The position numbers and the translations under genes are program-made. DNA of 42,743 nt from an uncultured Clostridia bacterium. Lineage in GTDB: Bacteria; Acidobacteriota; Blastocatellia; UBA7656. Under the pieces are notes generated by a model. That model was not told the origin of the DNA, searched no databases, and was given only the letters and a program-made list of their open reading frames with translations. This document shows, in pieces, positions 16,427-33,663 of the stretch. Where the stretch lies: positions 1-42,743 of the forward strand of contig CAZPQE010000001.1 in NCBI GenBank assembly GCA_964588615.1, written 5' to 3'. Numbering within the stretch: the first letter of the stretch is position 1; every line of letters starts with the position of its first letter.

Positions 16427-16434
16427 TAAGGAGA

Positions 16435-17151
16435 ATGATGTCGTTCGATAAAATCGCGCAAGCATGGAAAGAAGCTCTGAAGATGGAATACTCGCCCGTC
16501 GCCATCGCTTTTTCAAACGAGCCGCCCGAAGGAGTTGAAAGAAGCCCGGAGCCGTCGCCCTCAGCCTGCACTTTCTGGCGGCGGGGACAGACGAAAGTTT
16601 TCTACGCCACTTCGGACGATCACAGCAATTGCCCGATAGGTCTGATGACGATGGGGTTTTCGCTCTCGCCGGAAAACAGCGATAAGGCTCGATCGCTCGT
16701 CTCCACGATGGCCTCGCTGCATTATTTCGATCCGTCAGAAGTCGCGCACCTGCCGACTGTCGAAAAATCGCACGAAGTCGTCGTCTACGGCCCGCTCGAT
16801 CAGTTTCCCCTCGATCCCGATCTCGTATTGCTGATGCTCGACGCTTATCAGGGGATGATCGCCGCAGAAGCTATCGGGCAGGTGACGTGGGCTGAGAATC
16901 CTCAACTCGGCTTGTTTGGTCGCCCGGCATGCGCCGCTCTTGCCAGAGCCGAGCGCGGGGGCAATTCAACCATGAGTCTGGTCTGCATCGGGGCGCGAAC
17001 TTACACTGATCTCGGTCAGGAAGATATGCTGCTCGTAGTTCCTTTCTCTCAACTCGCCGAAGCGACCGAACGTCTGGCCGCAGTCGTTGACGCCAACACC
17101 GCGCTGGCCGCTTATCACCGGGAGCAGAGAAGGATCATCGCGGGCGGATGA
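16435..17151 (+). CDS. DUF169 domain protein
   Basis: The pattern PVAIAFSNE...ACTFW...FYATSDDHSNCPIG...LVLLMLDAYQ...RPACAAL...MSLVCIGART is typical of DUF169. AAGGAG Shine-Dalgarno. Confidence 0.8.
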   Translation: MMSFDKIAQAWKEALKMEYSPVAIAFSNEPPEGVERSPEPSPSACTFWRRGQTKVFYATSDDHSNCPIGLMTMGFSLSPENSDKARSLVSTMASLHYFDPSEVAHLPTVEKSHEVVVYGPLDQFPLDPDLVLLMLDAYQGMIAAEAIGQVTWAENPQLGLFGRPACAALARAERGGNSTMSLVCIGARTYTDLGQEDMLLVVPFSQLAEATERLAAVVDANTALAAYHREQRRIIAGG

Positions 17152-17612: not shown

Positions 17613-19523
17613 TCAGCGCCCGCCCGTGCCATAGAACTTCCAGTTGGATTTGAAGTCGCGCGCGAGTTTCTGACCGGTGAGTATCGCCCGCACCATTTCC
17701 ACAGGGATGCGTCCTTCTTTCAGTATCGCGTCGTGAAATGCCCGGTCGGTCATCTTTCCCGTTTCCACCAACTCGCGGTGCAGAGCGCGAAACTGCATGC
17801 CGCCGAGCAGATACGCCGCCTGATAGAGCGGGCCGTACTGACCGGCGAATGAGCGGCGCACTTCAGCCGTCGCATTGTCCACTTCATGACCGACGCGATT
17901 GACAAGCAACTCGATGCACTGCTGCGGAGTCATCTTCTCCAGATGAAAGCTCAACGAAAAAATGATCCGGGCGCAGCGGTGCATTCGCCAGAAGAGCATG
18001 CCTATTCGATTCTCAGGCGTTTTGGCGAACCCTCTGTCCCAGAGCAGCAACTCCCAGTAGAGCGCCCATCCTTCGCCCCAGAACGGCGTCGAAAACAGAT
18101 TGCGATAAGGCCGGAAGCGGGCCGTCATAAACCCCTGCAGGTGATGGCCGGGTATGAGTTCGTGATGGACGGTGGCGCGCGAAAAGTGGATGTTGTTGCC
18201 TCTCATGCTCATCATCTTCGCTTCGTGCGACATGGTGTTTGTGGGATAAGAGACCTGAATCGTCTCTCCGCCCAGAAAGAACGGGCTGACCAGTTGGCGT
18301 TCGGGCGACAGCATCTCCATCCGCCACGACTCGCGGGCCAGCGGCGGCACGGTCACCAGATCGTTCTTTTCGACGTATTCAATCGCTTCCATAGCAAGCT
18401 CTCGAATCAACTGAGGCTGACGGCCCGGCTCCACATGCAGGGTCTTTACGTGCTCAAGCGCCTTGTGCCAGTCGTCGCCGTAGCCAAGCTCGCGCGATGC
18501 CTTCTTCATTTCCGATTCGCACCAGTCGAGTTCCTTGTTTGCGATGGCGATCAACTCTTCTGGCGTGTAAGGGATCATTTCGTAAGCGAGCTCGGTCATC
18601 AAAGCCTCGCGCCCGATGGGGTCGCCTATGATGTCGCTTGCGTCGCCCGGTCTCGCCGCGCCCCCGGATCGCTGAGGCCCGCCTGCTCCCTGCCCTCCCG
18701 CGCCCTGACCGCCTCCCTGACCTCTCCCGGCTCCGGGCCTGGAATCGGCTCCAGGAGCCTGTTCCGGCCTCAGACCCAGAACTCGTTCATTCAACAATGA
18801 CGCATAAGCTGCGAGCGACTGATCGACTGACTTGTAAGGCTCGTCCGCCCACCAGGTGAATACCGGATCGTAGCCGTTGTAGAATCCGTACCAGCTTCTC
18901 ATCATATTTCTCAGAATGCCGACCGCTCCCACTGCGCGATTGGCTACGGTCTTTTTCACCTTGATGGCCCCCGGTCTCGCTTCAGGTCTGAAACCCGCTT
19001 CGACCGCCCTCTGCGTCTCAGCGATCTGTTTGCTTAGGCGAGTGAGCAGCGCGGCGACGCGCGGAGAATCAATCGGCTCCATTCGCTTGCGCGCTTCTTC
19101 CAACTCGACCAGCGGTCTGGCAAACGGGATGAGAGCTTCCATCTCGGCAGCGCGCCTCTCCTGCTCGTCGAGCTCCCGCAGCGCGTGATCGAGATAGTTT
19201 CTGAAGAGAAGGTAATCGATACGACCGTCGAGGCTCAGAGAATCGAAATCCATTCGGTCGAGCGCGTTCAGCCATTCAGTGTAAAGCCGTTTCATTCGCG
19301 TTTGTCGCGCGCCGGAAAGCTGCGCCGTATGGAAGCGATTGAGGCTCCCCTGATCGACCGCAAATCGCTCGATCACGCCGCGCATCTCGCTTTTTGAAGA
19401 GTCGAGATCAGGCAGGGGAGCTTTTTCATCCCAAGAGAAAGCGCGCGACGCAGAGGCAAACCACCCTCCGACGACAAGCGCGACAATCAGCATTGCGACC
19501 ATCAGATTCAGTCCTCGTCTCAT
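17613..19523 (-). CDS. DUF885 family protein (metallopeptidase-like), exported
   Basis: 636 aa with an N-terminal signal/anchor (LMVAMLIVALVVGGWFASA). Contains the conserved DUF885 block ATVHHELIPGHHLQ. GAGGAGG Shine-Dalgarno. Confidence 0.85.
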   Translation of the reverse strand: MRRGLNLMVAMLIVALVVGGWFASASRAFSWDEKAPLPDLDSSKSEMRGVIERFAVDQGSLNRFHTAQLSGARQTRMKRLYTEWLNALDRMDFDSLSLDGRIDYLLFRNYLDHALRELDEQERRAAEMEALIPFARPLVELEEARKRMEPIDSPRVAALLTRLSKQIAETQRAVEAGFRPEARPGAIKVKKTVANRAVGAVGILRNMMRSWYGFYNGYDPVFTWWADEPYKSVDQSLAAYASLLNERVLGLRPEQAPGADSRPGAGRGQGGGQGAGGQGAGGPQRSGGAARPGDASDIIGDPIGREALMTELAYEMIPYTPEELIAIANKELDWCESEMKKASRELGYGDDWHKALEHVKTLHVEPGRQPQLIRELAMEAIEYVEKNDLVTVPPLARESWRMEMLSPERQLVSPFFLGGETIQVSYPTNTMSHEAKMMSMRGNNIHFSRATVHHELIPGHHLQGFMTARFRPYRNLFSTPFWGEGWALYWELLLWDRGFAKTPENRIGMLFWRMHRCARIIFSLSFHLEKMTPQQCIELLVNRVGHEVDNATAEVRRSFAGQYGPLYQAAYLLGGMQFRALHRELVETGKMTDRAFHDAILKEGRIPVEMVRAILTGQKLARDFKSNWKFYGTGGR

Positions 19524-19558
19524 TTTCGAAACCTCCTCGGGGAAACAGTTTTCAGTTT

Positions 19559-21454
19559 TCAGCGCGGTCGCGCTCTCTCACCGGCTACTTTCCAGTAGAC
19601 CGCATAACGCTCGTCGATGAGTTTGTAAAACGGCACAAGAGTTACATTGCGGCTCTGTCCCGTCGTCTCGAATTCCAACCCGTGGCCGGTCGGCCTGATC
19701 CACGCGCTGAGGTTCTGAGAGTTCGTCTTCAACGATGGAGCCTCGACGGGCCTGCTTCGGTAGCGCGGAATCTGTCGAACGCCGGTCGGCTCGGCGCGCA
19801 GCACGTCGGCTGTCAAACCTTCAGTTCCCAGTTTGCCCGCCATAACGAGCGGCCCATACATCACAGCCTGCAACGTATCATCATCGGGCATCGGGTGAGC
19901 GTGCAGGCTCATGGGAAGTTTCACCTCGACTTTATCGCCGTCCTGGAACAGGCGATCCAGAACGAAGTAGCTCGATGGCGCGGCGAAGCCTTCAAGCGCG
20001 CGCCCGTTGAGTTTCACCGCGCCGCCCTGCGTGGCCCAGTAAGGCACTCGAATGCGAAGCCTGATCGGCGTCGGCTTGTCTGCGCGGATGGTGATCGCCG
20101 TAGTGTCTTCTTCGGGGAACCGGGTGTCCTGAATAACTCGAATGCCTTTTTCCGTCCAGGCGACTTCGGAACTGATGAACAGGTTTACATAAATTCCATC
20201 GTCGTCGTGAAAGTAGATGCTGTCGCCGAGCTTGGCGAATGACTCGATGCCTGAGCCGGTGCAACACCAGAAAGCATGCAGCGGCAATCCGAACAGCTTC
20301 CAGTAACCTGAAGCGAGCGGAACGTAATAAAGCGTCATGCCGTCACGGGGGTGCTGAGTTCCGAGTATGCCGTTGAACATCGCTCGCTCGTAATAATCGG
20401 CGCAGCGCGCGTCGGCGCTCCAACTGAAAAGGTGACGTGTGAGCTTGAGCATGTTGTAAGTGCAGCAGCACTCCTGCGTGTAGCCGCTCAGTTCTCCGGC
20501 GAGTTTTCCGGCGTCTGATCCCCATCGCTCCCCATTGCTCGTTCCCCCTGTGCAATAAGACCGTTTGCCCGTCACCTGACGCCAGAAGTAATCAGCTATC
20601 TCGCGGTATCGCGCCTGGCCGGTTATCTCGTAACGACGAGCCGCGCCGATTATCTTTGGGATGATGGTGTTGACGTGAAGACCTTTCAACTCATCGCGCC
20701 CTTCGGCCAGAGGCGCGAAGACCCTTTCGTGATCGAAGCGATGAGCCAGTTCGCGCCAGAGGCGATTTCCGGTGACGACGTGAAGATTGTAGAGCACATC
20801 GTTCATCCCGCCGTACTCGCGCTCAAGCACGCGCGCAAAGTGAGCCTCGCCCAGCGGGTCGACCCATCGGCGAGTCCATTCGCCGATGCCTTTCAAAACA
20901 TCGAGCGCCTGCTCGTTTGCGCAGTAAGTGTGCATATCGAGCAGCCCGGCCATGATTTTGTGCAGCGTGTAAAAAGGAGCCCAGGCCGGTTTGCCTTCGC
21001 GCAATCGGTCGAAGAGTTCTTCGGGGAACGCGCTCAGATATCCGTTGCCTGTCGCCCTCTGGCACTTCGCCAGTTCAGCGACCAGGAGATTGCCTCTCGT
21101 TTTTGCCGTCTCATCGCCGAGGCTGGCGCTCATAAGCGCGCAGGCTGAAAGGTAATGACCGGTGAAGTGGCCTCGAAGCTCGTTTGCCGGTTGTTCCCAT
21201 CCGCCGAGCGGCTCGGCAGAAGAAGGCAGCCCGGCGGTCAGGCGAAAAGTGTGAAGCAGGCGATCCGCGTCGAGGCTCACCACGTAGCGGCGATTCGTTT
21301 CCGCCGCGTCGAGAAAGATTCCCGGCCTGAGTCGCACACGTTCGAGTGCGAACGGACGCGCTTTGACGGGAGAGTCAGCGACAGTCAATCGCGCAAGCGG
21401 AATGGCTGCGCCCATTGCGGCGACGAAATTCCTCCTTGTTATATGCGCGGGCAT
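19559..21454 (-). CDS. Glycoside hydrolase family 127 (DUF1680) beta-L-arabinofuranosidase-like, Tat-exported
   Basis: Twin-arginine signal MPAHITRRNFVAAMGAA. Contains the E-C-C (YTQECCCTYN) and FWCCTGSG cysteine motifs expected for the Zn/Cys active site of HypBA1-type enzymes. 631 aa. Confidence 0.8.
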   Translation of the reverse strand: MPAHITRRNFVAAMGAAIPLARLTVADSPVKARPFALERVRLRPGIFLDAAETNRRYVVSLDADRLLHTFRLTAGLPSSAEPLGGWEQPANELRGHFTGHYLSACALMSASLGDETAKTRGNLLVAELAKCQRATGNGYLSAFPEELFDRLREGKPAWAPFYTLHKIMAGLLDMHTYCANEQALDVLKGIGEWTRRWVDPLGEAHFARVLEREYGGMNDVLYNLHVVTGNRLWRELAHRFDHERVFAPLAEGRDELKGLHVNTIIPKIIGAARRYEITGQARYREIADYFWRQVTGKRSYCTGGTSNGERWGSDAGKLAGELSGYTQECCCTYNMLKLTRHLFSWSADARCADYYERAMFNGILGTQHPRDGMTLYYVPLASGYWKLFGLPLHAFWCCTGSGIESFAKLGDSIYFHDDDGIYVNLFISSEVAWTEKGIRVIQDTRFPEEDTTAITIRADKPTPIRLRIRVPYWATQGGAVKLNGRALEGFAAPSSYFVLDRLFQDGDKVEVKLPMSLHAHPMPDDDTLQAVMYGPLVMAGKLGTEGLTADVLRAEPTGVRQIPRYRSRPVEAPSLKTNSQNLSAWIRPTGHGLEFETTGQSRNVTLVPFYKLIDERYAVYWKVAGERARPR

Positions 21455-21466
21455 GGGATGCTCCTT

Positions 21467-22933
21467 TCATTTTTTCTGAAGCAGTTCTTTTTCGGAAGCG
21501 ACAGGAAATTTTTGCAGCAAGCCTCCCTGCCCGACCAGACGCTCGATTTCGTCAAGCTCCGAGGGCAGAAAAGAGGTGAAGTTCTCGACTCCTGTTTCAG
21601 TCACCACGACAACATCTTCATAGCGCAGGTAGATTTTTTCTTCAGGGACCCATAGCTGCGGATCGATTGAAAAAACCTGACCCGGTTTGAGCGCGTCCCG
21701 ACTGTAGCCGCCGTCGTCATGAACGGCGAGTCCTACGGGGTGAGAAAAAACGCCTCCGCCAGTCGCCACGAGTTTTCGCGCCGCCTGCTCGTAAATCGGC
21801 TTTGAGAACTTCGTCCGTCGAAACACTTCTTCCATCGCCTCGCGTGCTTCTTCCATGATCGCTCTCGCTGTCACCCCCGGACGAATCCGCTTCATGATCG
21901 CGTTGCGATACTCAAGCACGAACTGTAGAAGCTCTCTCTGCTCGCGGCTGTACCTTCCATTGACTGGCCACACCCGCGCGATGTCGCTTGTGTAGTAGCC
22001 ATAGTCGGGAGCGTAATCCATCAGCACCAGGTCGCCGTCTTTCAACTGCCCGTTGTTTCGATAGTAGTGGATGTTCCAGATGTTTTCCGTCCCCGCAGCG
22101 GTGATCGAGCGATAGCCTTCGAGCCGCGCGCCGCCCGCGAGGAACACATATCGGGCGACCGCGTCGAGTTGATACTCATATACTCCCGCCTTCGTGCTGC
22201 GCATCGCCTCGATCAATCCGAGGCCGGCAAGTTGCGAGGCGCGGCGAATCAGAGCCACCTCGCGAGGGCTCTTCACGCTGCGCATCTCGTCAAGCACTGG
22301 AGTGAGGTCGCGCACATCGACTCGCGGAAACCGCGTGCGCAACAGTCCCGTGAAATGCGTTTCTCTGGACGGCCTCCCGTCCCAGTAATCCGAAGCGATG
22401 GCGGCGTTGGCGGCAAGCAGTTCTCCCCGGCTCTGCGCGCTGCCTTCTGCCGGGGTGAAAAGCGTGTAGACCGCAGTCTGGCCATTGAGCAGATCGCGCA
22501 TCCAGTCGTCAGTCATCGCCCGCGCGCTCAACACCGCATCGACGCCCGTGAGCGAGCGAGCGAGTTCCGCATCGTCGGCTGAAAGTATCTTGCCCTCGGC
22601 TCGCTCAAGGCTCTCGTTGCGCGGAGGCAGCAGAAGCGTCACTCGGCGGCTTCTGCCGTCGAGCAGCAGATAAGAGTGAGGAGTTTCGATCCCGCAGAGG
22701 TAATAAAACTCGTTGGTCTGTCGCGGAAAGATATAACCGTTCGTAAGCGGCATGCCCTGCACGATGGCTACGGCCTTGTCGCCGATGCGATCGAAAAGTT
22801 TCTGCCATCGCGCGCGGAATTCTTCCGGCGGAAAATGCGGCTGGTAATAAGGCGCGCTCTGACCGTAAGTCAGCCCCGCTAAAATCAACAGCAGTAAGAC
22901 CGACCGCCAGCTACATTTCTTAATCATTTTCAT
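21467..22933 (-). CDS. M24B Xaa-Pro aminopeptidase (aminopeptidase P family) with signal peptide
   Basis: AMP_N-like N-terminal domain plus a pita-bread domain (LMDYAPDYGYYTSDIARVWPV, HPVGLAVHD, YLRYED). Cleavable-looking signal MKMIKKCSWRSVLLLLILAGLTYGQS. Confidence 0.85.
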   Translation of the reverse strand: MKMIKKCSWRSVLLLLILAGLTYGQSAPYYQPHFPPEEFRARWQKLFDRIGDKAVAIVQGMPLTNGYIFPRQTNEFYYLCGIETPHSYLLLDGRSRRVTLLLPPRNESLERAEGKILSADDAELARSLTGVDAVLSARAMTDDWMRDLLNGQTAVYTLFTPAEGSAQSRGELLAANAAIASDYWDGRPSRETHFTGLLRTRFPRVDVRDLTPVLDEMRSVKSPREVALIRRASQLAGLGLIEAMRSTKAGVYEYQLDAVARYVFLAGGARLEGYRSITAAGTENIWNIHYYRNNGQLKDGDLVLMDYAPDYGYYTSDIARVWPVNGRYSREQRELLQFVLEYRNAIMKRIRPGVTARAIMEEAREAMEEVFRRTKFSKPIYEQAARKLVATGGGVFSHPVGLAVHDDGGYSRDALKPGQVFSIDPQLWVPEEKIYLRYEDVVVVTETGVENFTSFLPSELDEIERLVGQGGLLQKFPVASEKELLQKK

Positions 22934-22940
22934 CCCTCCC

Positions 22941-24590
22941 TCACTGCCGCTCGATCACCCGGCCCGACGCTTTTACATCCTGCATCGCTTTGTAGACCGG
23001 ATAAACTTTTCCCGTTTCGAGATAAGCGTCCAGAAAATTCCATGCTGCCAGTCCGTCATCGCTTTCGGGTTCGAGCAGGTAAGAAGCCAGAGTCGAAAGC
23101 GGTTGCGCCGAGCGCACAAGAACGGTTCCCGCAGGAAATTCCATCGTCTCTTTTTTATAGCTGCCCTTGAGCCTGACTTCGTTATGCCCCTGAAAAGCCC
23201 GCGCGCTTCGCTTCACCTCTCCAATCACGAAGCTCTCGACCTCAGCCGTGAGCGGCGCGGTCAACTCTTCCACCGTCACGCCATGTGCGAGCAGCTTCTC
23301 GACAACCACTTTCATGCCCGCTTCCGGTCGGAAGAGATAAGCGCGCGGGGCGGCAACCGAGCGGGTTGCGACGAAAGCGCCGTAGTCGAGCATTCTGGTC
23401 GGCGTGAATTTGCCTTCGACCATGACGGTCATATCAGCGCCCGAACGCGGGTTCTTCGCTTTGGTGACTTCTCCCACCAGAATATCGACCGGCTTTGGCA
23501 GCGGCCTCATTTCATATTCGACGCCGAGTTGAAATGAAGTTCGTCGAACGGTGTCCGAATCGACGCGGCTGGTCAGTTGACGGATTTCATCCCCGTGCGA
23601 GGCCGAGTATTTGAATATCTCTTCGACCAGCGCCTCGGTGACTTTCACCCGCCCGCGAAAATCGAGATAACTGTATGCCTCAGAAAGAATGGTCAATCGA
23701 TTGCGGAGTCCTATGTAGTTTTGTCCTATGCGCGGCGCGTGCGTGAATGCCTGCCACGAGCGAGCGTCCTTCTCTCCGGGTCGGGGGCGCGAGAAGTTGC
23801 CATAGAAATAAGTGCGGAACTTGTGCCGGTCGAGCATGGCGCGGGTGATTACGGGAAGCATTTTTTCCCGATGATAGCTGACGATCCTCGGATCGGAGGA
23901 CGGATTGAGCGGCTGCGAGTAAGTCAGATGATAGCCGTGAAACGAGCCGTTGGTGGTGTGCAGATCGACGGTCACATGCGGGTCCCAGCGATTGAACAAT
24001 CGCACCAGCGAACGGGCTTCGGGCGATTCGAGTTTCATGTAATCGCGGTTGAGATCGAGACCTGCCGAGTTTTCGCGCCTGCCGACTCCGCCGACAGGGC
24101 CGTTCTGTTCGGCGCGATTCTGAAGGCTGATTTTTTCGTTGCCGTCGGCGTTGTAGATTGGCGCGATCAGTATGATTATCCGGTCGAGCAGCGGGCGCAG
24201 ATCGCCTGAGACGATGCGCCGGGCAAGGTGCTGCGCCGCCTCTTTGCCTTCGACTTCGCCCGCGTGAATGTTGCCCATTATGAAAACTATGGGCTTGCCT
24301 GAAATCCGAGCGTCGCGCGGTTGAGAGATGGGAGGATCGGCCAGGATCATCAGCGGCAGCGGGCGGCCCTCCTGCGAGTAGCCGAATGTCTCCACGCGCA
24401 ATATGTCAGCGCGCTTTTGCAGTTCGCTGATGAAGCGAGTGACATCATCGTATCGACTGGTCTCTTCGTAGTTGGTGAGTTCGGGGCGCGATTTCAACGC
24501 CTCGTCCTGCGCGTGCGCATCAGCGCGCAGCAAAATAAGCAGCGAGAAGCAGGTGAGAATCAGTTTCAAAAGTCGGAAATCGGTCTGCAT
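22941..24590 (-). CDS. M14 family zinc carboxypeptidase, exported
   Basis: Zinc motif [10 protein letters not shown] (HxxE). Signal peptide [28 protein letters not shown] prefer the ATG at 24590, which has a GGAGA Shine-Dalgarno, over the GTG at 24623. Confidence 0.85.
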
Positions 24591-24678
24591 TTTTATCTCC
24601 GGCAGCAAGGATGAGAAGTCCACTGTCGTATCGGGCTTGAGCGCGACGGATGAAACCGCATAAGCTTGTCGCGCAGAA

Positions 24679-24750
24679 CTGGTTCACCGCAGAGAGGCGC
24701 AAAGACGCAGAGGATCGGATGTATCCCCTACGTGCTCTGCGGTGAACCAG
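24679..24750. repeat. Perfect 16-bp inverted repeat CTGGTTCACCGCAGAG / CTCTGCGGTGAACCAG (40-nt spacer) between the KGSA dehydrogenase and M14 genes
   Basis: Read directly from the sequence. It lies in the only sizeable gap (143 nt) of the minus-strand array. Confidence 0.75.
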
Positions 24751-24766
24751 AAATCAATACTCTGAC

Positions 24767-26353
24767 TCAGCGCGTCAAACGACCGTCCACTGTTCGCCAC
24801 ACGCCGAGAGGGTTTTCGTCTTTGAGTTCATCAGGCAACATCGAATCCGAAAAGCCCTGATAGCACACTGCTCGCGCGAAGCGATTTATCGCCCGCGTTC
24901 CCACAGAAGTGGATTGCCCGTCTGAAGTCGCAGGAAACGGGCCGCCGTGGGTCATCGCCGAACAGACTTCGACTCCGGTTGGAAAACCGTTGATGACGAT
25001 CCGCCCGACTTTGTTTTCAAGCACGGCAATGAGGTCTCCGCACTCCTGCCGGTCTTCTTCCGCAGCCCACACAGTCGCCGTCAACTGGCCTTCCATCGAG
25101 CGCGCGACCGAGAGCATCTCTTCACGACTGCGATGAGCGATCAGAAGAGTCGAAGGGCCGAAGACCTCTTCGCTCAGTTCGGGATTTTCGAGAAAAGTTC
25201 GGGCATTGGTTCTAAACAACGCCGCCGTCGAGCGGCAATCGGGTGAATCCTCTTCGATCTTTTTTTTCGTTATCGTTTCAACTCTGTCGTCGCGGAAGCG
25301 AGCGCGCACGGCGGCGCTGTATGATTGCGAAATCCCCGGCGTGAGCATAGTGAAATGGTCAGCGCCATCGATCAGACCAGCGAGTCTTTCAGTGAAGCTC
25401 TGCGCCGCATCGTCGTCGGCCATCACCACGAGTCCGGGATTGGTGCAGAACTGGCCCGCGCCCAAAGTGACCGAAGTGTGCAACCCGGCGGCTATCTGAT
25501 CGCCCCGCTCGCGCATCGCGCCTGCGAGAATGAAGACAGGATTGATGCTGCTCATCTCGGCATAAAACGGAATGGGGCAGGGCCGCGCGCGAACGGCTTC
25601 CATCAATGCGCGCCCGCCCGCGCGCGAGCCTGTGAAGCCGACCGCCGCAACAAGCGGATGAGTCACCAGAGACAACCCCGTTTGATTGCCTGCGCCAAAA
25701 ATCAGCGAGAAGACTCCTTCGGGAAGTCCGCACTCGCGCGCGGCTTCCTGCGCGGCGAGGCCGACCATCTCAGAAGTTCCGGGATGAGCCGGGTGAGCTT
25801 TGACGATGACCGGGCAGCCTGCGGCTAAGGCGGAAGCGGTGTCGCCGCCTGCGACTGAAAAAGCGAGAGGGAAATTGCTCGCGCCGAAAACGACGACCGG
25901 CCCCAGAGGTCTGAGCATCGATCTGATGTCGGGCTTTGGCGCGGGCTGGCGCGCGGGGTCGGCGCGATCAATCCTTGCATCAACCCATGATCCTTCTTCG
26001 ACGAGATCGGCGAACATTCGAAGCTGATTGCAGGTGCGAGCGGTTTCCATCTGAATGCGAGCCACAGCGAGCGCGGTCTCACGAGCGGCGCGCGAAGTGA
26101 GAGGCTCGCCGATTGATTCGATGTTGTCGGCGATTTTTCTGAGGAAAGCGGCTTTAGTTTTTCCCGACGCGCGGCCATAGACCGCAAACGCGCTGTCAGC
26201 CAGTCGAACCGCCTGATCGATTTCCGACTCAGTAGCCGAGTGATAAGCAGCAGGCAGTTTTTCGCCCGACGCCGGGGCCAGAGCGAAAAAAGTCTCTGCG
26301 CTGTCTGCTCCTCTCTGAAAACCTATGATCGATTTGCCTGTGAGTTCTGCCAC
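24767..26353 (-). CDS. NADP-dependent aldehyde dehydrogenase, alpha-ketoglutaric semialdehyde (2,5-dioxovalerate) dehydrogenase type (LhpG-like)
   Basis: 528-aa ALDH with catalytic-Cys motif GAGQFCTNPG. The N-terminus is typical of the KGSADH subgroup. It sits in the hydroxyproline operon. GTG start. Confidence 0.8.
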   Translation of the reverse strand: MAELTGKSIIGFQRGADSAETFFALAPASGEKLPAAYHSATESEIDQAVRLADSAFAVYGRASGKTKAAFLRKIADNIESIGEPLTSRAARETALAVARIQMETARTCNQLRMFADLVEEGSWVDARIDRADPARQPAPKPDIRSMLRPLGPVVVFGASNFPLAFSVAGGDTASALAAGCPVIVKAHPAHPGTSEMVGLAAQEAARECGLPEGVFSLIFGAGNQTGLSLVTHPLVAAVGFTGSRAGGRALMEAVRARPCPIPFYAEMSSINPVFILAGAMRERGDQIAAGLHTSVTLGAGQFCTNPGLVVMADDDAAQSFTERLAGLIDGADHFTMLTPGISQSYSAAVRARFRDDRVETITKKKIEEDSPDCRSTAALFRTNARTFLENPELSEEVFGPSTLLIAHRSREEMLSVARSMEGQLTATVWAAEEDRQECGDLIAVLENKVGRIVINGFPTGVEVCSAMTHGGPFPATSDGQSTSVGTRAINRFARAVCYQGFSDSMLPDELKDENPLGVWRTVDGRLTR

Positions 26354-26365
26354 TGATTGCCCCTT

Positions 26366-27271
26366 TCAAACCTGAATCGACGGACGGCGCTCCAATGCCG
26401 CGCGAATCGTCGCTCTCGCTTCTTCAAGTTCCGCGCCGACAAGCTCAAGTCGCGGAGGCCGCACCCGCGCGCTGCCCATGCCGATTTCCTGCTGGACTAG
26501 CTTGATGAGTTGAACGAACTTTGGCACAGTGTCCATCCTCAACAACGGCAGGAACCATTGATAAAGTTCGAATGCTTTTTCGTCTTCGCCGCTGATTGCA
26601 TAGTCGAACAAATCTACGGACTCTTTCGGGAAAGCGTTGACCAGCCCCGCTATCCATCCGGTCGCGCCGACGGCTGCGGCTTCGACTATCGCGTCATCTA
26701 CTCCGACAAAGAGCGAGAGGCGATCACCGACGAGAGCTCGGATCGCGGTCACGCGCCTCACATCGGTGCTCGATTCTTTGACCGCTTTCAGATTCTCGTG
26801 CTCGGCGGCAAGCTCCTCAATGTGCTCAGGAAGAAAGTCAGTGCCATAAGCTACAGGATTGTTGTAGAGCATGCACGAAAGAGGAGTCGCGCCGACGACC
26901 GCAGAAATATAAGCCTTCATCTCTCGCCAGTCGCCGCGATAAACATAAGGCGGAAGCACCATCAACCCTTCGCAGCCTGCGGCTTGAGCCGCGCGCGCAA
27001 GCTCTGTGGCTTCGCGTGTGCCGAGCGCCGAGATAGCCGCAACGACCGGCGCTCTGAGGCCAACTGCATCGATGCAGGTTTTCCAGATGGCCTTCTTTTC
27101 TTCGCTCGTCATAGTCGCGCCTTCGCCGAGCGATCCGGGCGTGACTATTCCGGTGCAGCCGCTATCGATGAGCCAGCGGCAATGCTCGGCCACGAAGCTA
27201 TGATCGATTTCGAGAGATTCATCAAAGCAGGTCGTGATAGCAGGCATCACGCCTTTCCATTCCATCGTCAT
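26366..27271 (-). CDS. DapA/DHDPS-family lyase, probable delta1-pyrroline-4-hydroxy-2-carboxylate deaminase (LhpC-like)
   Basis: 301-aa DHDPS fold (GIVTPGSLGE, Schiff-base Lys in KAVKESS). The function is inferred from operon context. Confidence 0.75.
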   Translation of the reverse strand: MTMEWKGVMPAITTCFDESLEIDHSFVAEHCRWLIDSGCTGIVTPGSLGEGATMTSEEKKAIWKTCIDAVGLRAPVVAAISALGTREATELARAAQAAGCEGLMVLPPYVYRGDWREMKAYISAVVGATPLSCMLYNNPVAYGTDFLPEHIEELAAEHENLKAVKESSTDVRRVTAIRALVGDRLSLFVGVDDAIVEAAAVGATGWIAGLVNAFPKESVDLFDYAISGEDEKAFELYQWFLPLLRMDTVPKFVQLIKLVQQEIGMGSARVRPPRLELVGAELEEARATIRAALERRPSIQV

Positions 27272-27291
27272 TCTTCAATCTCCTTGTGTGT

Positions 27292-27360
27292 GTGTCAGTA
27301 GCCCGCGCGCAAGCAACGATCAATCAAAGAGGCCCTCCCTGACGGTCGGGCTACTGACAC
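27292..27360. repeat. REP/MITE-like palindromic element inside the hydroxyproline operon (orientation A-arm...B-arm)
   Basis: GTGTCAGTAGCCCGCGCGCAAGCAACG...GGCCCTCCCTGACGGTCGGGCTACTGACAC. It overlaps the last 13 codons and the stop of the upstream CDS (27320-27360). Confidence 0.85.
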
Positions 27361-28651
27361 ATTGCGCATCCTTACAGTGCGCCTCGTCTACAGACGCGGC
27401 TGACGTTTGAGCGAGGCTTCCCAGCCGCACGGGAAAAACAGGCGGGCGCATGGATTCGACTCTCCAGCCAAAAAGAAACTCGACGGCAGGGCCGCACACC
27501 CTCGCCTGACACGGCCCCATGCCGCAGCGCGTCTGAAGCTTGGCTGCTCTCCACGAGTCATGCTCTTTCAATCGCTCGAAGTTCACATCTTCGCAGCGAC
27601 ACACGATGGTTTGCGCATCAGGCAGCGATTTCAATTCATCGCGCAGCGCGAAAGCGCGGTTGAGCGAATCGGCAAATCGACGATGGCCTTCCCGCTCGAC
27701 GAACAGTTTTCGCGCTTCATCCCTTCTGCCCGCAGCCGCCAGACCCGCGATCCGGCCTTCGATCAGCGACAATTCAAGCCCGCCGATGCCTGTCGCTTCG
27801 CCCGCACAATAAATCCCCTCGACGGAAGTCTCCTGAAATTCATTCACCACTGCGCTCCCATCTCGCAGTTCGCATCCGAGCAGAGAAGCAAGCTCAAGGT
27901 TAGGGACGAGGTGGAATCCGCAGGCGAGATAATCGCACTCGATCCTGCGCGTCCGTCCCTTTTCGCGCAGCGTGACGCTCTGTAATTTCTCATCCCCGTC
28001 GGCGCGCGCTGGCCAGCAGTCGAAAAAATACCGAATGCCTCGCAGTTCTCTTTTCAATCTGACAGCCTGCATCGCTTTGCCCGACTGTCTGATGAGCGAC
28101 CACGCAAAGCGCATCACTCGACTGCGCGGTGTCTGTTCGGCGACAGCCAGCACCTGAGCGCCGCGCTTGCTGAGATAACCCGCTACGGCCAGAAGCAGAG
28201 GCCCGCTTCCGGCGACGACGACTCTCTTGCCGCTTACCGGCAATCCTGATTTGACGAGAGCCTGAAGTCCTCCCGCGCCAAAAACATTAGGAAGCGTCCA
28301 GCCCTCGAAAGGCAGGAATCGCTCACGCGCGCCGGTGGCAAGAATCAAGCTGGAATAGTTCAGTTCATAAACGTCCTCTTCGCTTTCGGCCAGCAGCAGC
28401 CCCGGTCGAATTTGATCGAACACTCTCGCGCCGTGAATGAATCGAACATTCGAGCGTCGAATTTTTTCCAGCCATCGCGCCGCTTCAATCGTGACTGGCT
28501 TCGCATGCTCTCCTCGCCAGATTTGACCTCCCGCTCCGGCATTGTCATCGATGATGGTGACGCGATGAAGGCTTTCGGCCAGAACTGAAGCCGCAGCGAT
28601 CCCGGCAGGGCCGCCGCCCACTATCAGCGCGTCGCTATCGATTTTAATCAT
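27320..28651 (-). CDS. FAD/NAD(P)-binding oxidoreductase, large subunit of heteromeric D-hydroxyproline dehydrogenase (LhpF / opine-oxidase A-like)
   Basis: N-terminal ALIVGGGPAGIAAA dinucleotide motif. 443 aa. An 8-nt overlap with the 2Fe-2S subunit gene. The C-terminal 13 aa are encoded by the repeat element. Confidence 0.75.
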   Translation of the reverse strand: MIKIDSDALIVGGGPAGIAAASVLAESLHRVTIIDDNAGAGGQIWRGEHAKPVTIEAARWLEKIRRSNVRFIHGARVFDQIRPGLLLAESEEDVYELNYSSLILATGARERFLPFEGWTLPNVFGAGGLQALVKSGLPVSGKRVVVAGSGPLLLAVAGYLSKRGAQVLAVAEQTPRSRVMRFAWSLIRQSGKAMQAVRLKRELRGIRYFFDCWPARADGDEKLQSVTLREKGRTRRIECDYLACGFHLVPNLELASLLGCELRDGSAVVNEFQETSVEGIYCAGEATGIGGLELSLIEGRIAGLAAAGRRDEARKLFVEREGHRRFADSLNRAFALRDELKSLPDAQTIVCRCEDVNFERLKEHDSWRAAKLQTRCGMGPCQARVCGPAVEFLFGWRVESMRPPVFPVRLGSLAQTSAASVDEAHCKDAQCVSSPTVREGLFD

Positions 28652-28889
28652 CAGTCCTCACTCGCATTCCATCGCGGCAGAGTATCTGACAACTGCGCGA
28701 GTGCCGCCGTCCGTCAATCGTCACGCGGCATTCGAAGCAGATGCCCATGCCGCAGAGCGGGCCGCGAGGATCTCCACTGATCGACCGTCGAAAAGCGGTC
28801 ACGCCCGCAATCATCACCGCCGCTGAAACCATGCACCCCTCATCGACAGTGATCGCCCGGTCATTGATGAACAGTCTTATCTCAGACAT
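28644..28889 (-). CDS. Small (2Fe-2S)-binding subunit of D-hydroxyproline dehydrogenase (LhpE-like)
   Basis: 81 aa starting [18 protein letters not shown], with Cys cluster CGMGICFEC...SC. I chose the internal Met at 28889. It overlaps both neighbours by 8 nt. Confidence 0.75.
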   Translation of the reverse strand: MSEIRLFINDRAITVDEGCMVSAAVMIAGVTAFRRSISGDPRGPLCGMGICFECRVTIDGRRHSRSCQILCRDGMRVRTDD

Positions 28890-29994
28890 GAGCGACCTCC
28901 TCACGCGCGGGCAGAAAAGGCGCGATCGGGATAGCCGATTCCCGATCAAGCAACTGATCGATGAGCAATCTCGCCGTGCCGAGCGAAGTCGTGATTCCAA
29001 GCCCCTCGTGTCCGGTCGCAAGATAAAGATTCTCCTGCCGGGGGTGAGGGCCTATCAGCGGCAGGTTGTCCGAGGTCGCCGGTCGAAATCCCGTCCACGC
29101 GCGTATGGCGGAAATCTGTTCGAGACCGGGCAGATAGTGACAGGCGCGATCGAGCATTCGACTCAATATGCGCGATTCGACTTTCGTGTCTTCTGCTCCG
29201 TATTGCCGCGACGAGCCGATGAGCATCTGCCCTGTCCGACGCGGCTGGATGTTGAAGGCTATGGAAGCGGCGTCGTGCGAGTGCGCGCTCTTGAGATAGC
29301 CAAGCTCTACGAGTTGATGGCGAACGAATCCCGGATAGCGATCCGTGATTACCAGATGCCCTTTGCGCTTCTGCACGTCCAGCCCTGGCGTGAGCGCCGA
29401 AGACCACGCGCCCGCCGCGTTGATGGTCACGGCGGAACCGATAAAAGAACCATCGGCGAGCCTCGCGCCCTCGTCGGTGATTTCGATGACCGGTCGGCCC
29501 ACCATCAAATCGGCTCCCCGCGCCTGTTTCAGGATGAACCTCGCGGCAGCGGGCGGATAGATCACGCTGTCGCCAGCAATGAGCAGCCCTCCTGCAAGTC
29601 CCGGCCTGAGATTGGGCTCCGTCTCGTAGAGAGATTTTTCATCGAGCATTTCGACCGTGATGCCGCGAGCGCGATAAAACTGTTCCTTGCGCCTGGCTTC
29701 CGTCATGTCTTCCGCGTCAGTCGCTACCCAGATCGTGCCGCATGGATCGTATTCGCCATCGAGAGGCATCTCCAGTTCATCCCACAGAGTTTGCGAATAA
29801 CGGGTGAGCGCGAACTGAGCCGGGGAATCGTCCATCACTGTGATGTGGCCCATGCCTGCGGCAGTCGCGCCGCCCGCGATCATGCTGGCTTCGATGACTG
29901 CGACGCTCAGACCCTCGCGCGCGCATTCGGCTGCGCAGGCCGCGCCGACTATGCCTGCGCCGACTATCGCCACGTCATAAGACTTCCGCGTCAT
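28882..29994 (-). CDS. FAD-dependent oxidoreductase (DadA-like), catalytic subunit of D-hydroxyproline dehydrogenase (LhpB-like)
   Basis: [16 protein letters not shown] Rossmann motif. 370 aa. ATGA overlap with the epimerase gene. Confidence 0.8.
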
Positions 29995-30929
29995 CTGCCA
30001 ATTCCCATGCAGAATGGATCGCGCTCATCGAGTATGAGATCGGCTTCGGCGGTGATGAACGCCATGCCCGTGATGCTCGGATAAATCCTGTCATCGATGA
30101 TCGAAACGCTGCCTTCGAATACGCTGCCGACGATGCTCTCCTGTCGCCACACCTGTCCCTCCGCGAGTTTTCCGTCGGCGTATAGACAGGCCATCTTTGC
30201 GCTCGTGCCGGTTCCGCAGGGCGAGCGGTCGTAAGCCTTGCCTGGACACAGCACGAAGTTTTTGCTGTCGACCTCTTCGATTGCGGAAGGGCCGAATAAT
30301 TCTATGTGATCGATTTCCTGACCGCGCTCTCCGGTGACGCCCTGCGCGGAGAGCGCAAGGCGTATGCGCCAGGCGAATTCGGTCAACTCGTCGAGGTTGG
30401 CCAGCGACAGTTCCAAAGGATGATCCTCGACCAGAAAGAACCAATTGCCGCCCCAGGCGATGTCGCCGCAGACGGTTCCGTATCCCGCTACATCGACGGC
30501 GACGCGCGCAGATGTGCGAAAGCTCGGCACATTTCTGATGGTCACTTTGCCTGACTCGTCGAGGCGCGCTTCGACTGCGCCCGCAGGGGTTTCTATGCGA
30601 TGAGCGCCCGGAGAGATTCGATTCAAATAAGCCAGCGTGACTACGAGGCCGATGGTTCCGTGTCCGCACATTCCGAGATAGCCCACATTATTGAAGAAGA
30701 TCACTCCTGCCGCTGAACTCGAATCGACTGGCTGGCAGAGCAGCGCGCCGACTACGGCGTCCGACCCGCGCGGCTCGCAGGCGACAGCCGCGCGATAATG
30801 GTCGTAATCGTTTTTGAGCCTGTCTAATCGCTCGGCCATCGAGCCGTTGCCCAGTTCAGGGAATCCGCTGACGACCACCCGCGTAGGCTCGCCGCCGGTG
30901 TGAGAATCGATAATGTGAATACGTTTCAT
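29991..30929 (-). CDS. 4-hydroxyproline 2-epimerase (proline racemase family, LhpA-like)
   Basis: [20 protein letters not shown]-terminus. Both catalytic cysteines are present (GMCGHGTIG and [11 protein letters not shown]), which indicates an epimerase/racemase rather than a dehydratase-type member. Confidence 0.85.
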
Positions 30930-31010
30930 CCTGATGCCCGACATCATTCAAAGGCAGAATACTCCTGTCCGTCCATTAGAGCGTGTCTGCCATCTCTGGA
31001 AGCGACGGCT

Positions 31011-31080
31011 GTGTCAGTAGCCCGACCGTCTGGCTTGCTTGCGACACTCAAGCCCTTGCTCACGCGCGGGCTACCGACAC
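31011..31080. repeat. REP/MITE-like palindromic element (orientation B-arm...A-arm) between the AraC gene and the epimerase gene
   Basis: GTGTCAGTAGCCCGACCGTCTGG...GCCCTTGCTCACGCGCGGGCTACcGACAC. It is itself flanked by the 10-bp inverted repeat GCGTGTCTGC (30981-30990) / GCAGACACGC (31093-31102). Confidence 0.85.
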
Positions 31081-31164
31081 GTCCCTCAGTTTGCAGACAC
31101 GCTTTTAGTAAAACACCGGAGCGGCTGGCGTGTATTGAACGAGCGTAAGGTCGCTTGAACGCGA

Positions 31165-31986
31165 TTAGGATTTGCGAAGCAAATCGCGGTATTGAGCCGG
31201 AGGCATGCCTATGTGCTGTTTGAAGGTGCGGGTGAGATGGCTCTGATCCGAAAAGCCGGCTTCGAGCGCGATGCGGCTCAATGGAAGATCGGTTGAGGCG
31301 AGCGACTGGCAGGCAAAATCTATTCGCCGCCGCCGGAGATAAGTTCCGATAGTGCAGTTGTAGTGTTTGTGGAAAACCTGCGAGAGATGCGCGGGATGGA
31401 TGCCGACTTCCTGAGCTATTTCAGCCAGCGTGATGGGTTCGCTGAACCGGTCGTGAAGAAACTCTCTGGCGCGTTCGAGCCACAGCGGGGGCCGCGAGAT
31501 CGAAGGGCAGGCGGCGGAGCGCGAGGTCTCGCCTACCATTTCGAAGATCAGTCCTTCGATCACCAGCGGGGAGATTTCATCCATTTCGAGAAATTCCCGA
31601 TAGAGCCTGCGGGCCAGCACGATGAGAAGGCCGCCGTCGAAATCAGCCGAGGTGCTTATTATCCGCGAGTGCTCGCGCAGACGATCGAGCCACGAATTCT
31701 CTATCTCGACGATGAGCGAGCATCCGCCCGCGCGATTGAAATGCTCCGCGTGCGTCTCGCCTGCGGCGTGGAACAGGAAAGTCGAAGGCTGGCAGGCGCG
31801 AGTCCTGGATCCGTAGGTGGCAGTGTAGCCGCCGCGCACGACATAGCAGAAGAGGGCGTTGTCGTGGGCGTGCCTGGGCGACTGGAAGTTGGCCGCATAT
31901 TGTCGCTCCCACAGGGTGAACGGGCCTGTGCGGTGACTGCGTACTCCCTTGCCGTGCAGGTCGGTGTTTGCCAATGTTACAGACAT
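31165..31986 (-). CDS. AraC family transcriptional regulator (cupin-like sensor + HTH)
   Basis: C-terminal dual HTH (LAEIAQEVGIHPAHLSQVFHK; IALEAGFSDQSHLTRTFK). The start at 31986 has a GGGAGA Shine-Dalgarno. The alternative ATG at 32076 cannot be excluded. Confidence 0.8.
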   Translation of the reverse strand: MSVTLANTDLHGKGVRSHRTGPFTLWERQYAANFQSPRHAHDNALFCYVVRGGYTATYGSRTRACQPSTFLFHAAGETHAEHFNRAGGCSLIVEIENSWLDRLREHSRIISTSADFDGGLLIVLARRLYREFLEMDEISPLVIEGLIFEMVGETSRSAACPSISRPPLWLERAREFLHDRFSEPITLAEIAQEVGIHPAHLSQVFHKHYNCTIGTYLRRRRIDFACQSLASTDLPLSRIALEAGFSDQSHLTRTFKQHIGMPPAQYRDLLRKS

Positions 31987-32094
31987 GACTTGATCTCCCA
32001 CGCGCCCTTCCAATCGCGTGAGACAGATTATATCCGAACGCCCGGTTTTTGAAAGCGCATTCTTGAAGAAATCCATGTCTTCTGAAAGGCCGTC

Positions 32095-33069
32095 TCAGGG
32101 GTTCCTGCTCTCGGGCGGCTTGTCAGTGACCGGCCTGTCGAGCTTTTCTTCGCTCGTGACCTGAAAGCGTTTGAAGCTGGTGTAGGTGTAGGTGAGCCGC
32201 CCGTGGAGCAGCAGTTCGGGCTTACTCTTGTTTTGAAAGTGAGTGAAGAAACTGAACACGAATTTTCTGGGGGCGAGTATGCCGAAATCGCTCGGCCCGT
32301 AGTTCTGTTCGTACCGCACCAGGGTGAGCGGAGACTCTGATTTGGGATGTCGGACGATGATCTCGCGCTCTTCTCGCCATATCTGGAATGTTCGCGCATC
32401 GAGCCAGAGTGTGCCTCGCCATCGAGGCTGCGGGTCTCGAAATTCCGGAGGCAAACTGACCTTGTACGCCTCCGGAGCGCCTGTGGTCTGCTGTTGTCGA
32501 ACGATTATCATTTCGGTTCCATCGACGATCTCTCTGCCTGCGACTTCGAAGCTGTAACGATGGCGATGCTTTTCCTTCAACGCCACTCCCTGATTGAGCG
32601 TGAAGCCTCTCATCCAGAATTGCAGGTCGTAGCGATAGCTCTCGCGGTTGATCCGCTCAAGCTCTTTCTCTACGGACTTGACTTTCGAAAGCCACTCGAA
32701 CAAACCCATCACGCGCTGCTGGCGGTCTTTAATCGCCTTGCCATCGACCTCGCGGATGTTGTGATACTCGAAGGTGTCTTTTTGGTCGAGGCGCGACTCG
32801 TAGACTATGAAATCCGACACGATGACTCGACGCTGTTCGAGCTTGCCCGACGGGCTGAAAATCTCGGTGATTTTGGTCTCCTCAGCGGTGAGGTCTTTGA
32901 ACTTCGCGCTATATTCCTCCGACTGTCGGGCTGCCTGAGTGATTATGTGTTCGGTATCGGGCGAAGATTGCCGCGCCAGCGCCAGGACTGCGATGCAGAA
33001 AATAATCAAAGGCAGCGGGATGAAATGAAACGGCTTTCTCAGTATCGAAAGCTTTGCGGCAAATGTCAT
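32095..33069 (-). CDS. Hypothetical exported/membrane-anchored protein (325 aa)
   Basis: AGGAGG Shine-Dalgarno 7 nt upstream of the ATG at 33069. N-terminal hydrophobic segment (FIPLPLIIFCIAVLALA). I recognise no family; it could have a LolA-like beta fold. Confidence 0.6.
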   Translation of the reverse strand: MTFAAKLSILRKPFHFIPLPLIIFCIAVLALARQSSPDTEHIITQAARQSEEYSAKFKDLTAEETKITEIFSPSGKLEQRRVIVSDFIVYESRLDQKDTFEYHNIREVDGKAIKDRQQRVMGLFEWLSKVKSVEKELERINRESYRYDLQFWMRGFTLNQGVALKEKHRHRYSFEVAGREIVDGTEMIIVRQQQTTGAPEAYKVSLPPEFRDPQPRWRGTLWLDARTFQIWREEREIIVRHPKSESPLTLVRYEQNYGPSDFGILAPRKFVFSFFTHFQNKSKPELLLHGRLTYTYTSFKRFQVTSEEKLDRPVTDKPPESRNP

Positions 33070-33590: not shown

Positions 33591-33663
33591 GAATATCCCC
33601 ATCTGGCCGCGACAAGTTTTGCAAACGACTGTGAATCGCTTGTTGAAGAGCAGGTAGTTTCAT

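Follow-up and report, generated by a model that had tools for sequence, protein, structure and literature searches.

A Blastocatellia gene array joining exported hydrolases to hydroxyproline catabolism: a candidate glycopeptide-utilisation locus

We analysed a 42,743-nucleotide (nt) contig, CAZPQE010000001.1 of assembly GCA_964588615.1 (the window), from an uncultured soil acidobacterium of the Blastocatellia. An array of eleven consecutive, tightly packed genes occupies its minus strand at 17613-32076 in the window's list of open reading frames (ORFs). In order of transcription they encode an AraC-family regulator, a 4-hydroxyproline (4-Hyp) epimerase, a trio resembling D-Hyp dehydrogenase, a DHDPS-like protein, an aldehyde dehydrogenase (ALDH), an M14 and an M24B peptidase, a DUF1680 glycosidase and a DUF885 protein. 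We put at about even the chance that this array is a locus for using Hyp-containing (glyco)peptides, coupled to Hyp catabolism. The substrate would most plausibly be fragments of plant or algal hydroxyproline-rich glycoproteins (HRGPs); every substrate and effector named here is one that we infer. The strongest new evidence of the analysis is an operator-like element that the Hyp operon of the window shares with DUF885 and glycosidase operons in other genomes.

Layout of the array and its putative hydroxyproline catabolic block

An earlier reading of the same DNA (the original prediction) had proposed eleven co-directional minus-strand genes, and both the ORFs and the Pfam matches bear this out (Table 1). 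The Pfam domains found across the array are DUF885; PF07944 with PF20736 and DUF4986; AMP_N with Peptidase_M24; Peptidase_M14; Aldedh; DHDPS; Pyr_redox_2; Fer2_4; DAO; Pro_racemase; and an AraC helix-turn-helix (HTH) with its ligand domain. The M14, M24B and DUF885 family assignments thus hold at the level of Pfam models. The ORF coordinates also agree with the spacing first described. In the hydrolase block the gaps are 7 nt (M14/M24), 12 nt (M24/glycosidase) and 35 nt (glycosidase/DUF885), and in the lhp-like, Hyp-catabolic block HypE and DAO overlap by 4 nt, DAO and Fer2_4 by 8 nt, and Fer2_4 and Pyr_redox_2 by 8 nt, the remaining spacers being 48 and 12 nt. Independent Joint Genome Institute (JGI) gene calls on a 100% identical contig (L165) give the same genes. 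Judged by eye, signal-like N-termini are found on the four hydrolases only among the array proteins, in line with the Sec or Tat signals proposed for them. The best homologues of the glycosidase, DUF885 and M14 proteins are 74-77% identical, and those with a source name belong to Blastocatellia metagenome-assembled genomes (MAGs).

Table 1. Features of the array, in window coordinates
Feature	Position	Strand	Basis or remark
Exported DUF885 protein, putative gluzincin-like metallohydrolase	17613..19523	-	Pfam DUF885 (PF05960), 173 bits
Tat-exported GH146-type DUF1680 glycosidase, 631 aa	19559..21454	-	BT0349 similarity, conserved motifs
Exported aminopeptidase-P-type (M24B) Xaa-Pro peptidase	21467..22933	-	AMP_N + Peptidase_M24
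Exported M14-family zinc carboxypeptidase, 549 aa from ATG	22941..24590	-	Pfam M14, motifs, Sec-like signal
Half-site TCGCGCTCAAG	24636..24646	-	46 nt upstream of M14 ATG; like the promoter-distal operator half; weak
Strong hairpin, 14-nt perfect arms	24681..24748	-	Fold energy, shuffles
ALDH, candidate 2-oxoglutarate-semialdehyde dehydrogenase	24767..26353	-	Pfam Aldedh
DHDPS/NAL-family protein, candidate delta1-pyrroline-4-hydroxy-2-carboxylate deaminase (LhpC-like)	26366..27271	-	Pfam DHDPS and context
Pyr_redox_2 flavoprotein, candidate alpha subunit (LhpF-like)	27320..28651	-	Pfam; orthologue in L076
2Fe-2S Fer2_4 small subunit (LhpE-like), 81 aa	28644..28889	-	Pfam and JGI call of 81 aa
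DAO-family flavoprotein, candidate D-Hyp dehydrogenase beta subunit (LhpB-like)	28882..29994	-	Pfam DAO, 226 bits
4-Hyp 2-epimerase (LhpA/HypE type)	29991..30947	-	NCBIfam NF010577 and Cys/Cys pair
Candidate operator TCCTAATCGCG-TTCAAG-N14-TTCAAT-ACACG	31129..31170	-	Pattern and weight matrix
AraC-family regulator (cupin-type ligand domain + HTH_18)	31165..32076	-	Pfam

The lhp-like block had been described as a complete Hyp pathway. For the epimerase this stands: it scores 452 bits against the NF010577 equivalog (cut-off 442) and has the catalytic Cys/Cys pair (MCGH...DRSPCGTG). The other steps match at family level. The three dehydrogenase-subunit families are encoded as overlapping genes, an arrangement kept in a Paludibaculum MAG (L076) whose operon includes a 58% identical orthologue of the DAO protein. 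The last gene of that operon encodes a 67% identical orthologue of the DHDPS-like protein, and a 73% identical homologue adjoins DUF885 in locus L097. The closest solved relatives of the ALDH are the NADP-ALDHs 1eyy and 3v4c; the matches of the DHDPS-like protein and the ALDH all fall under the NCBIfam equivalog cut-offs. Because the epimerase alone is recognised at equivalog level and the other steps by family and context, the full route from Hyp to 2-oxoglutarate is a well-founded contextual reading.

The two blocks are separated by a gap between the ALDH and M14 genes. The gap had been noted at 143 nt; with M14 probably starting at the ATG at 24590, it spans 176 nt (24591-24766). The hairpin within it has a fold energy of -68.9 kcal/mol (z = -4.1; 0 of 200 shuffles as stable). 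Its inverted repeat extends to an interrupted stem of about 27 bp, the arms are unique in the window, and there is no T-tract. It could act as an attenuator or as a processing or stabilising element. An Rfam scan of 17-33.5 kb gave no match, the hairpin included, and a scan for sigma-70 promoters and terminators returned chance-level matches.

A shared operator-like element, recurring neighbours and the glycosidase family

The element was found by comparing intergenic regions of loci with AraC orthologues, followed by pattern and weight-matrix scans. It is bipartite and 42 bp long, with the consensus CCTAATC-N3-TTCAAG-N14-TWCAAGAC. In the window the element extends over the AraC stop codon, 182 nt ahead of the epimerase ATG. 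Its core pattern occurs once in the window (31134-31159), against 0.02 expected, and in seven further copies in five loci among the 172 scanned. Over 2.3 Mb searched on both strands, the weight matrix returned ten sites at 35-43 bits, with the next best at 17 bits, and added two new sites, both upstream of DUF885. Nine homologous sites in seven loci are known in this way besides the window's own. All ten sites are intergenic, with none inside ORFs; each points in the direction of the gene that follows and precedes it by 71-245 nt, and the flanks outside the search pattern are also conserved. The genes downstream are HypE (in the window), DUF885, a porin, or an amidohydrolase-BNR-DUF885 operon. 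Since the same cis-element precedes the lhp operon here and DUF885, GH146 and porin operons elsewhere, this candidate operator ties Hyp catabolism and the DUF885/GH146 pair to one type of regulon. An 11-mer, TCGCGYTCAAG, was set aside as a regulon motif because it was unspecific across loci and matched inside ORFs.

AraC orthologues adjoin the element in three loci, and full-length orthologues adjoin DUF885 operons in L085 (53% identical) and L172 (55%). The window's AraC protein is a candidate Hyp-responsive activator of the array, with the element as its presumed binding site and Hyp as its presumed effector. In the weight-matrix scan M14 had no full operator ahead of it, and neither L076 nor the Gemmatimonadaceae arrays contained one. 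The window's DUF885 gene lacks a separate operator, unlike its orthologues in other loci. This pattern is compatible with transcription running on from the lhp promoter, and the hydrolase block would then be co-transcribed with the lhp block.

Gene neighbourhoods were compared in 80 genome loci anchored on the orthologous glycosidase (56-74% identity; Blastocatellia, Thermoanaerobaculia, Bryobacterales, Gemmatimonadales and Steroidobacteraceae) and in 80 metagenome loci anchored on the DUF885 orthologue. Window proteins were mapped onto all loci, and neighbouring genes were called with a codon log-odds caller, validated on the window and on L076, and then clustered. The L076 operon consists of seven genes, DUF885-GH146-HypE-DAO-Fer2-PyrRedox-DHDPS, with overlapping stop/start junctions; it has no ALDH, and its flanking genes are unrelated. 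Gemmatimonadaceae carry DUF885-M24-GH146 (L024, L030, L045) or M24-GH146 only (L028). In L085 the AraC gene is divergent from a DUF885-GH146(799 aa)-BNR-TonB-type porin series, L172 combines amidohydrolase-BNR-DUF885 with AraC and a porin, and one contig carries DHDPS-Amidohydro_3-DUF885.

A proline-racemase homologue of the Cys/Thr type stands directly after DUF885 in six loci (L086:2371-3444, L088, L090, L091, L093, L105), and in four Gemmatimonadaceae genomes (L011, L013, L018, L022) a Ser/Cys variant is encoded close to the GH146 orthologue but on the other strand. Both types score best against trans-3-Hyp dehydratase models, under the cut-offs. We take the Cys/Thr pair as the hallmark of trans-3-Hyp dehydratase, so that its presence after DUF885 would be a further tie of DUF885 to Hyp. 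The linkage is not general. It is a minority arrangement that recurs independently, in different gene orders and phyla.

The glycosidase had been assigned to GH127 and its role argued from HypBA1. It does match the Pfam "GH127 catalytic domain" model PF07944, but this model also matches GH146-type proteins. Against solved structures it scores 359 bits (E = 3.9e-106; query 30-627, BT0349 23-654) with BT0349, the founding GH146 enzyme, and 248 bits with the GH146 enzyme Bll3HypBA1, compared with 35-80 bits for the GH127 structures 3wkw and 4qjy. HypBA1, the founding GH127 enzyme, is a distant relative at 35 bits. As the CAZy test for GH146, similarity to BT0349 was found across both the catalytic (alpha/alpha)6 domain and the beta-sandwich domains. 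On these scores GH127 sensu stricto was rejected, and by sequence the enzyme is of the GH146 type. Its residues E309, E328-x-C330 and C397-C398 align with BT0349 motifs and are invariant in 89 of 89 homologues; we take their roles as acid/base Glu, Cys nucleophile and Zn-binding Glu/Cys to be those of HypBA1 and GH146 enzymes. The twin-arginine motif TRRNFV is kept in 49 of 59 orthologues. With this correction the argument from HypBA1 must give way to one from XeHypBA1 (Xanthomonas) and Bll4HypBA1 (Bifidobacterium), GH146 enzymes that mainly cleave Araf-beta1-Hyp (Araf, arabinofuranose), while BT0349 and Bll3HypBA1 act on arabinan or arabinogalactan protein (AGP) (PMC10850190, PMC6085000). The change of family alters the Ara-Hyp argument and does not weaken it.

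The DUF885 protein has the motif H454-E455-x4-H460-H461...E484-G-W-A, kept in at least 81 of 86 homologues. The motif reads HE-x4-HH, not the canonical HExxH, and Pfam places the family in clan Peptidase_MA (PMC12572635). Its predicted model is mediocre, with a predicted local distance difference test score (pLDDT) of 68.7, and its significant structural matches are to the uncharacterised 3u24, 3iuk and 3o0y only. A peptidase fold like that of angiotensin-converting enzyme (ACE) was considered as proof and discarded, the match being non-significant (E = 0.35). We infer a hydrolase role for the protein and propose its gene as the signature of the regulon. At 18630-18770 (residues ~252-297) lies a low-complexity insert rich in Gly, Ala and Gln, GAGRGQGGGQGAGGQGAGG...; it has no counterpart in the Paludibaculum orthologue, and disorder is predicted for it (pLDDT <50).

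A bolder proposal extends to other genomes. The DUF885 clade would be the missing periplasmic (glyco)peptidase that frees Hyp, in an AraC-controlled GH146/porin/BNR glycopeptide regulon of soil Acidobacteriota and possibly Gemmatimonadota, with AraC as an LhpR-like regulator acting through the bipartite operator. Taken as a whole we regard this as tentative and rather doubtful.

Glycopeptide use weighed against its alternatives

In the mechanism that we propose, the four enzymes would be exported to the periplasm. There, the Tat-exported GH146-type cysteine glycosidase would take off beta-L-arabinofuranose, including the residue bound directly to Hyp, the M24B aminopeptidase P would remove residues ahead of Pro or Hyp, the M14 carboxypeptidase would trim C-termini, and the gluzincin-like DUF885 protein would cut the leftover Pro/Hyp-rich peptides. 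Free L-Hyp would enter by a transporter encoded elsewhere, and in the cytoplasm the epimerase, the three-subunit D-Hyp dehydrogenase, the DHDPS-like deaminase and the ALDH would convert it to 2-oxoglutarate. AraC would bind the operator and switch on the array, with Hyp or a derivative as the probable signal. The original prediction had likewise read the array as deglycosylating, trimming and catabolising Hyp-Ara glycopeptides. The coupling it supposed gains support from the recurrence and the shared element; its GH127/HypBA1 basis had to be given up, and the linkage proved to be a minority arrangement.

A number of observations weigh against this reading. The array lacks a GH121 or GH43 partner for outer arabinoses, arabinose catabolism genes, and a Hyp or peptide transporter or TonB-type receptor; tested with Pfam as a Sus-like polysaccharide utilisation locus, the 17.6-32.1 kb region yielded no SusC/SusD or TonB-dependent transporter gene. 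The stable hairpin, together with the lack of a full operator in the gap, means that the two blocks could be expressed separately. In the M24B peptidase Asp424 replaces the PepP metal ligand Glu383, a change found in the window only, the homologues having Glu. A PDB fold search with the DUF885 model gave no significant peptidase match, and a full-text literature search found no paper characterising DUF885 activity. The trans-3-Hyp-dehydratase-like neighbours fit collagen-type as well as plant substrates, 3-Hyp being a collagen-type residue.

The glycosidase raises further objections. The nearest solved homologue, BT0349, has arabinan oligosaccharides as its substrate (PMC10850190). As specificity varies within GH146, the substrate is not deducible from the glycosidase sequence, and Ara-Hyp specificity cannot be read from it. 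The original prediction had made neighbouring glycosidase and lhp genes in related genomes a test of its reading. The glycosidase, DUF885 and M24 genes recur beside lhp genes or beside one another in unrelated lineages; the closest relatives do not show the linkage, and lhp genes lie within 10 kb in only 1 of the 80 genomes that have the orthologous glycosidase. In those closest relatives (72-75% identical) the glycosidase follows an aldose-epimerase/GalT/GHMP-kinase/sugar-ABC operon, with a second GH127 and a GH29 gene near it, and the commonest neighbour of the glycosidase is a co-directional, Tat-exported protein of ~600 aa (26 of 84 loci). The sugar-operon context and the Tat-exported neighbour point to a general plant-glycan role.

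Such a role would suit a generic locus for scavenging Pro/Hyp-rich peptides of collagen-like, cuticle, microbial or plant origin. The glycosidase would work on a separate plant glycan (arabinan, AGP side chains or rhamnogalacturonan II), not on the Hyp-Ara bond, and would be co-located because both substrates occur in plant litter. This would accord with the mostly sugar-utilisation contexts of glycosidase orthologues, with the arabinan-oligosaccharide activity of BT0349, and with the collagen-type nature of 3-Hyp, given the dehydratase-like genes after DUF885. Another Blastocatellia MAG fits as well: its M14 orthologue is accompanied by PTR2 peptide transporters and a pair of DPP-IV genes, and no glycosidase gene is close by. 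We nevertheless think the scavenging locus unlikely, because the L076 glycosidase gene overlaps both DUF885 and the Hyp epimerase gene within one operon, the DUF885-GH146 pair recurs in at least three lineages, and in L085 this pair has the same operator as the window's lhp operon.

The 176-nt gap, the hairpin and the missing operator between the blocks could also mean that two unrelated operons, one an AraC-controlled lhp operon and the other a set of exported hydrolases, stand head to tail with no functional coupling. The arrangement is not seen in the nearest relatives, and M14 orthologues often stand alone (two of three M14 neighbourhoods had no relevant linkage), both as this would predict. 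Yet lhp genes, the regulator or the operator lie beside DUF885/GH146 independently in L076, L085, L172 and the P0124 contig, the element in front of the window's lhp operon also stands immediately ahead of DUF885 orthologues in other loci, and by a rough estimate a 7-kb operon would fall by chance within 10 kb of a given gene in ~0.4% of genomes. Mere juxtaposition is therefore quite improbable.

It is very improbable that the DUF885/GH146 module targets a non-HRGP glycoconjugate, such as a microbial or algal furanoside-decorated peptide, with DUF885 perhaps a binding or other hydrolytic protein: the family is uncharacterised, its motif departs from HExxH with no significant ACE similarity, and DUF1680 includes an aceric-acid hydrolase (PMC10850190) and GH127 a role in carrageenan degradation (PMC8163846), but the recurring functional neighbours are all Pro/Hyp-related (M24B, Hyp epimerase, 3-Hyp-dehydratase-like, LhpC-like), the Pfam clan is a peptidase clan, and the H/E/H/E positions of DUF885 are nearly invariant.

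Each part of the array is of a known kind, and the linkage, the shared regulator site and the DUF885 role are not described in the searchable literature. The array would be a nutrient-utilisation locus made up of known modules, and the linkage is sporadic. L-Hyp clusters are known from Pseudomonas (lhpA-lhpP, with the AraC-type LhpR), Azospirillum and Sinorhizobium (the hyp cluster). They comprise an epimerase, a D-Hyp dehydrogenase (including a three-subunit form), a DHDPS-like deaminase, an alpha-ketoglutaric semialdehyde (KGSA) dehydrogenase, an AraC-type regulator and Hyp transporters; we know of none with a set of exported glycosidases or peptidases. The window has the epimerase, candidates for the other enzymes and an AraC regulator, but its array lacks the transporter and adds four exported hydrolases. 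The original prediction knew of no described link between GH127 and a Hyp pathway, and in the searchable full-text literature we too found no paper that connects Hyp catabolic genes with enzymes of GH127 or GH146.

What comes closest is the pseudogene of a prolyl oligopeptidase that adjoins the HRGP arabinofuranosidase genes of Xanthomonas (PMC6085000). The Xanthomonas euvesicatoria system comprises XeHypAA (GH43), XeHypBA2 (GH121) and XeHypBA1 (XCV2724, now GH146) (PMC6085000, PMC10850190). Like the window, it has a GH146-type enzyme with a signal peptide, a gene for a Pro-specific peptidase beside the glycosidases, and a plant context. By its description XeHypBA1 has 791 aa, and the window enzyme is a 631-aa short form. 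The Xanthomonas system has GH121 and GH43 partners, of which the window has neither, and its regulation is by HrpX and the PIP box, in contrast to AraC. Neither Xanthomonas paper mentions Hyp catabolic genes, DUF885, M24 or M14 as part of the cluster (PMC6085000, PMC10850190). Bifidobacterium longum has a HypBA system of HypBA1 (GH127), HypBA2 (GH121), HypAA (GH43) and an ABC transporter (PMC7263609), and Bll4HypBA1 is described as the last enzyme, which frees Hyp of arabinose (PMC10850190). It shares with the window DUF1680 cysteine glycosidases with a Zn-Cys3-Glu site. As described, the system harvests arabinose, and these papers report no linked Hyp catabolism or peptidases (PMC7263609, PMC10850190). 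The DUF885 module also resembles TonB-centred glycan loci: in L085, L172, L099, L100 and L107 it is combined with a dedicated regulator and the operator belonging to it, with BNR/sortilin-like proteins and with a CarboxypepD_reg/outer-membrane beta-barrel protein. The window differs in having no SusC/SusD pair and no porin, and its end pathway serves an amino acid, not a sugar. Unlike that of glycan loci, its target seems to be a glycopeptide.

HRGPs are abundant and protease-resistant. In the searchable literature we found no account of a coupled route through which soil bacteria liberate and metabolise the Hyp of such glycoproteins. The array and the related loci suggest a route by which Ara-Hyp glycopeptide could be turned into 2-oxoglutarate. 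They also yield a hypothesis on the function of DUF885, a large family with three solved structures, and a defined candidate pair of operator and regulator. DUF885 and the operator together may serve as a genomic marker for such loci in Acidobacteriota and Gemmatimonadota, dominant and poorly cultured soil phyla. If the wider regulon exists, these abundant phyla would have a dedicated route for mining nitrogen and carbon from extensin and AGP; if one of the alternatives is right, the array would be an unremarkable patchwork of genes for peptide and glycan degradation next to an amino-acid pathway of a known kind.

Peptidase details, related loci and other genes of the window

By inspection, the M14 protein has the motifs H109-A-G-E112, N181-R182 and H211 and a candidate catalytic Glu304 (E304), with DLH and NRD present. 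Its Pfam match covers profile positions 3-136 of 286, the N-terminal half; the C-terminal half has diverged. In both L017 and L079 an M14 homologue is found 1-2 kb downstream of GH146. The M24B peptidase aligns end to end with E. coli PepP, keeping the ligands D260, D271, H354 and E406 as well as His243/His361. In L168 (10001-12805; P0183, in a cluster of five sequences) one gene product of 934 aa joins part of an M24 peptidase (Peptidase_M24, 76% identical to the M24 of the window) to a complete DUF885; this is a genuine fusion or else a shortened M24 that reads on into DUF885.

The operon before GH146 in the closest Blastocatellia relatives (L003, L004, L082, L083, L084; for example L083:1527-9793) encodes an aldose 1-epimerase, GalT, an inositol-phosphatase-like protein, a long GHMP kinase (487 aa) and a monosaccharide ABC transporter. 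It may provide a Leloir-like salvage route for the released sugar. The second GH127 in these relatives has 815 aa, and the GH29 is a fucosidase. The Tat-exported neighbour, present for example in L007, L013, L049 and L070 (L070:10261-12072), is not found in the window. A profile search of this protein against PDB and Pfam gave sub-threshold matches only (GH66, DUF6259, DUF5696, PelA-like), and it may represent a new glycoside-hydrolase family partnering GH146.

Elsewhere in the window, a region 11-16 kb from the array (1128-6424) encodes an APC-family amino-acid permease (1128-2429), an Amidohydro_2 protein and a serine carboxypeptidase of the S10-like type that has a TAP-like domain (4838-6424). 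Of the window's genes, that for the permease is the closest one that might import Hyp. A ThiS-ThiF-rhodanese fusion protein is encoded at 12181-13797. Convergent with the array end, at 15336-17151, a 163-aa ORF overlaps a PIN_12-domain gene, with which it could form a toxin-antitoxin-like pair, and a DUF169 gene follows. Upstream of AraC, two more minus-strand genes (32095-35022), with no link to the array seen, encode a 357-aa protein that matches no Pfam model and has a hydrophobic stretch at its N-terminus, and a multihaem cytochrome c of 452 aa that resembles RoxA. The region 35264-42119 holds a cluster of the leucine/acyclic-terpene type with genes for an acyl-CoA dehydrogenase, a biotin carboxylase with an MCC BT domain, a carboxyltransferase and a divergent AtuA. 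Where the carboxyltransferase gene starts, it is overlapped by a 213-aa ORF that weakly matches TonB_C.

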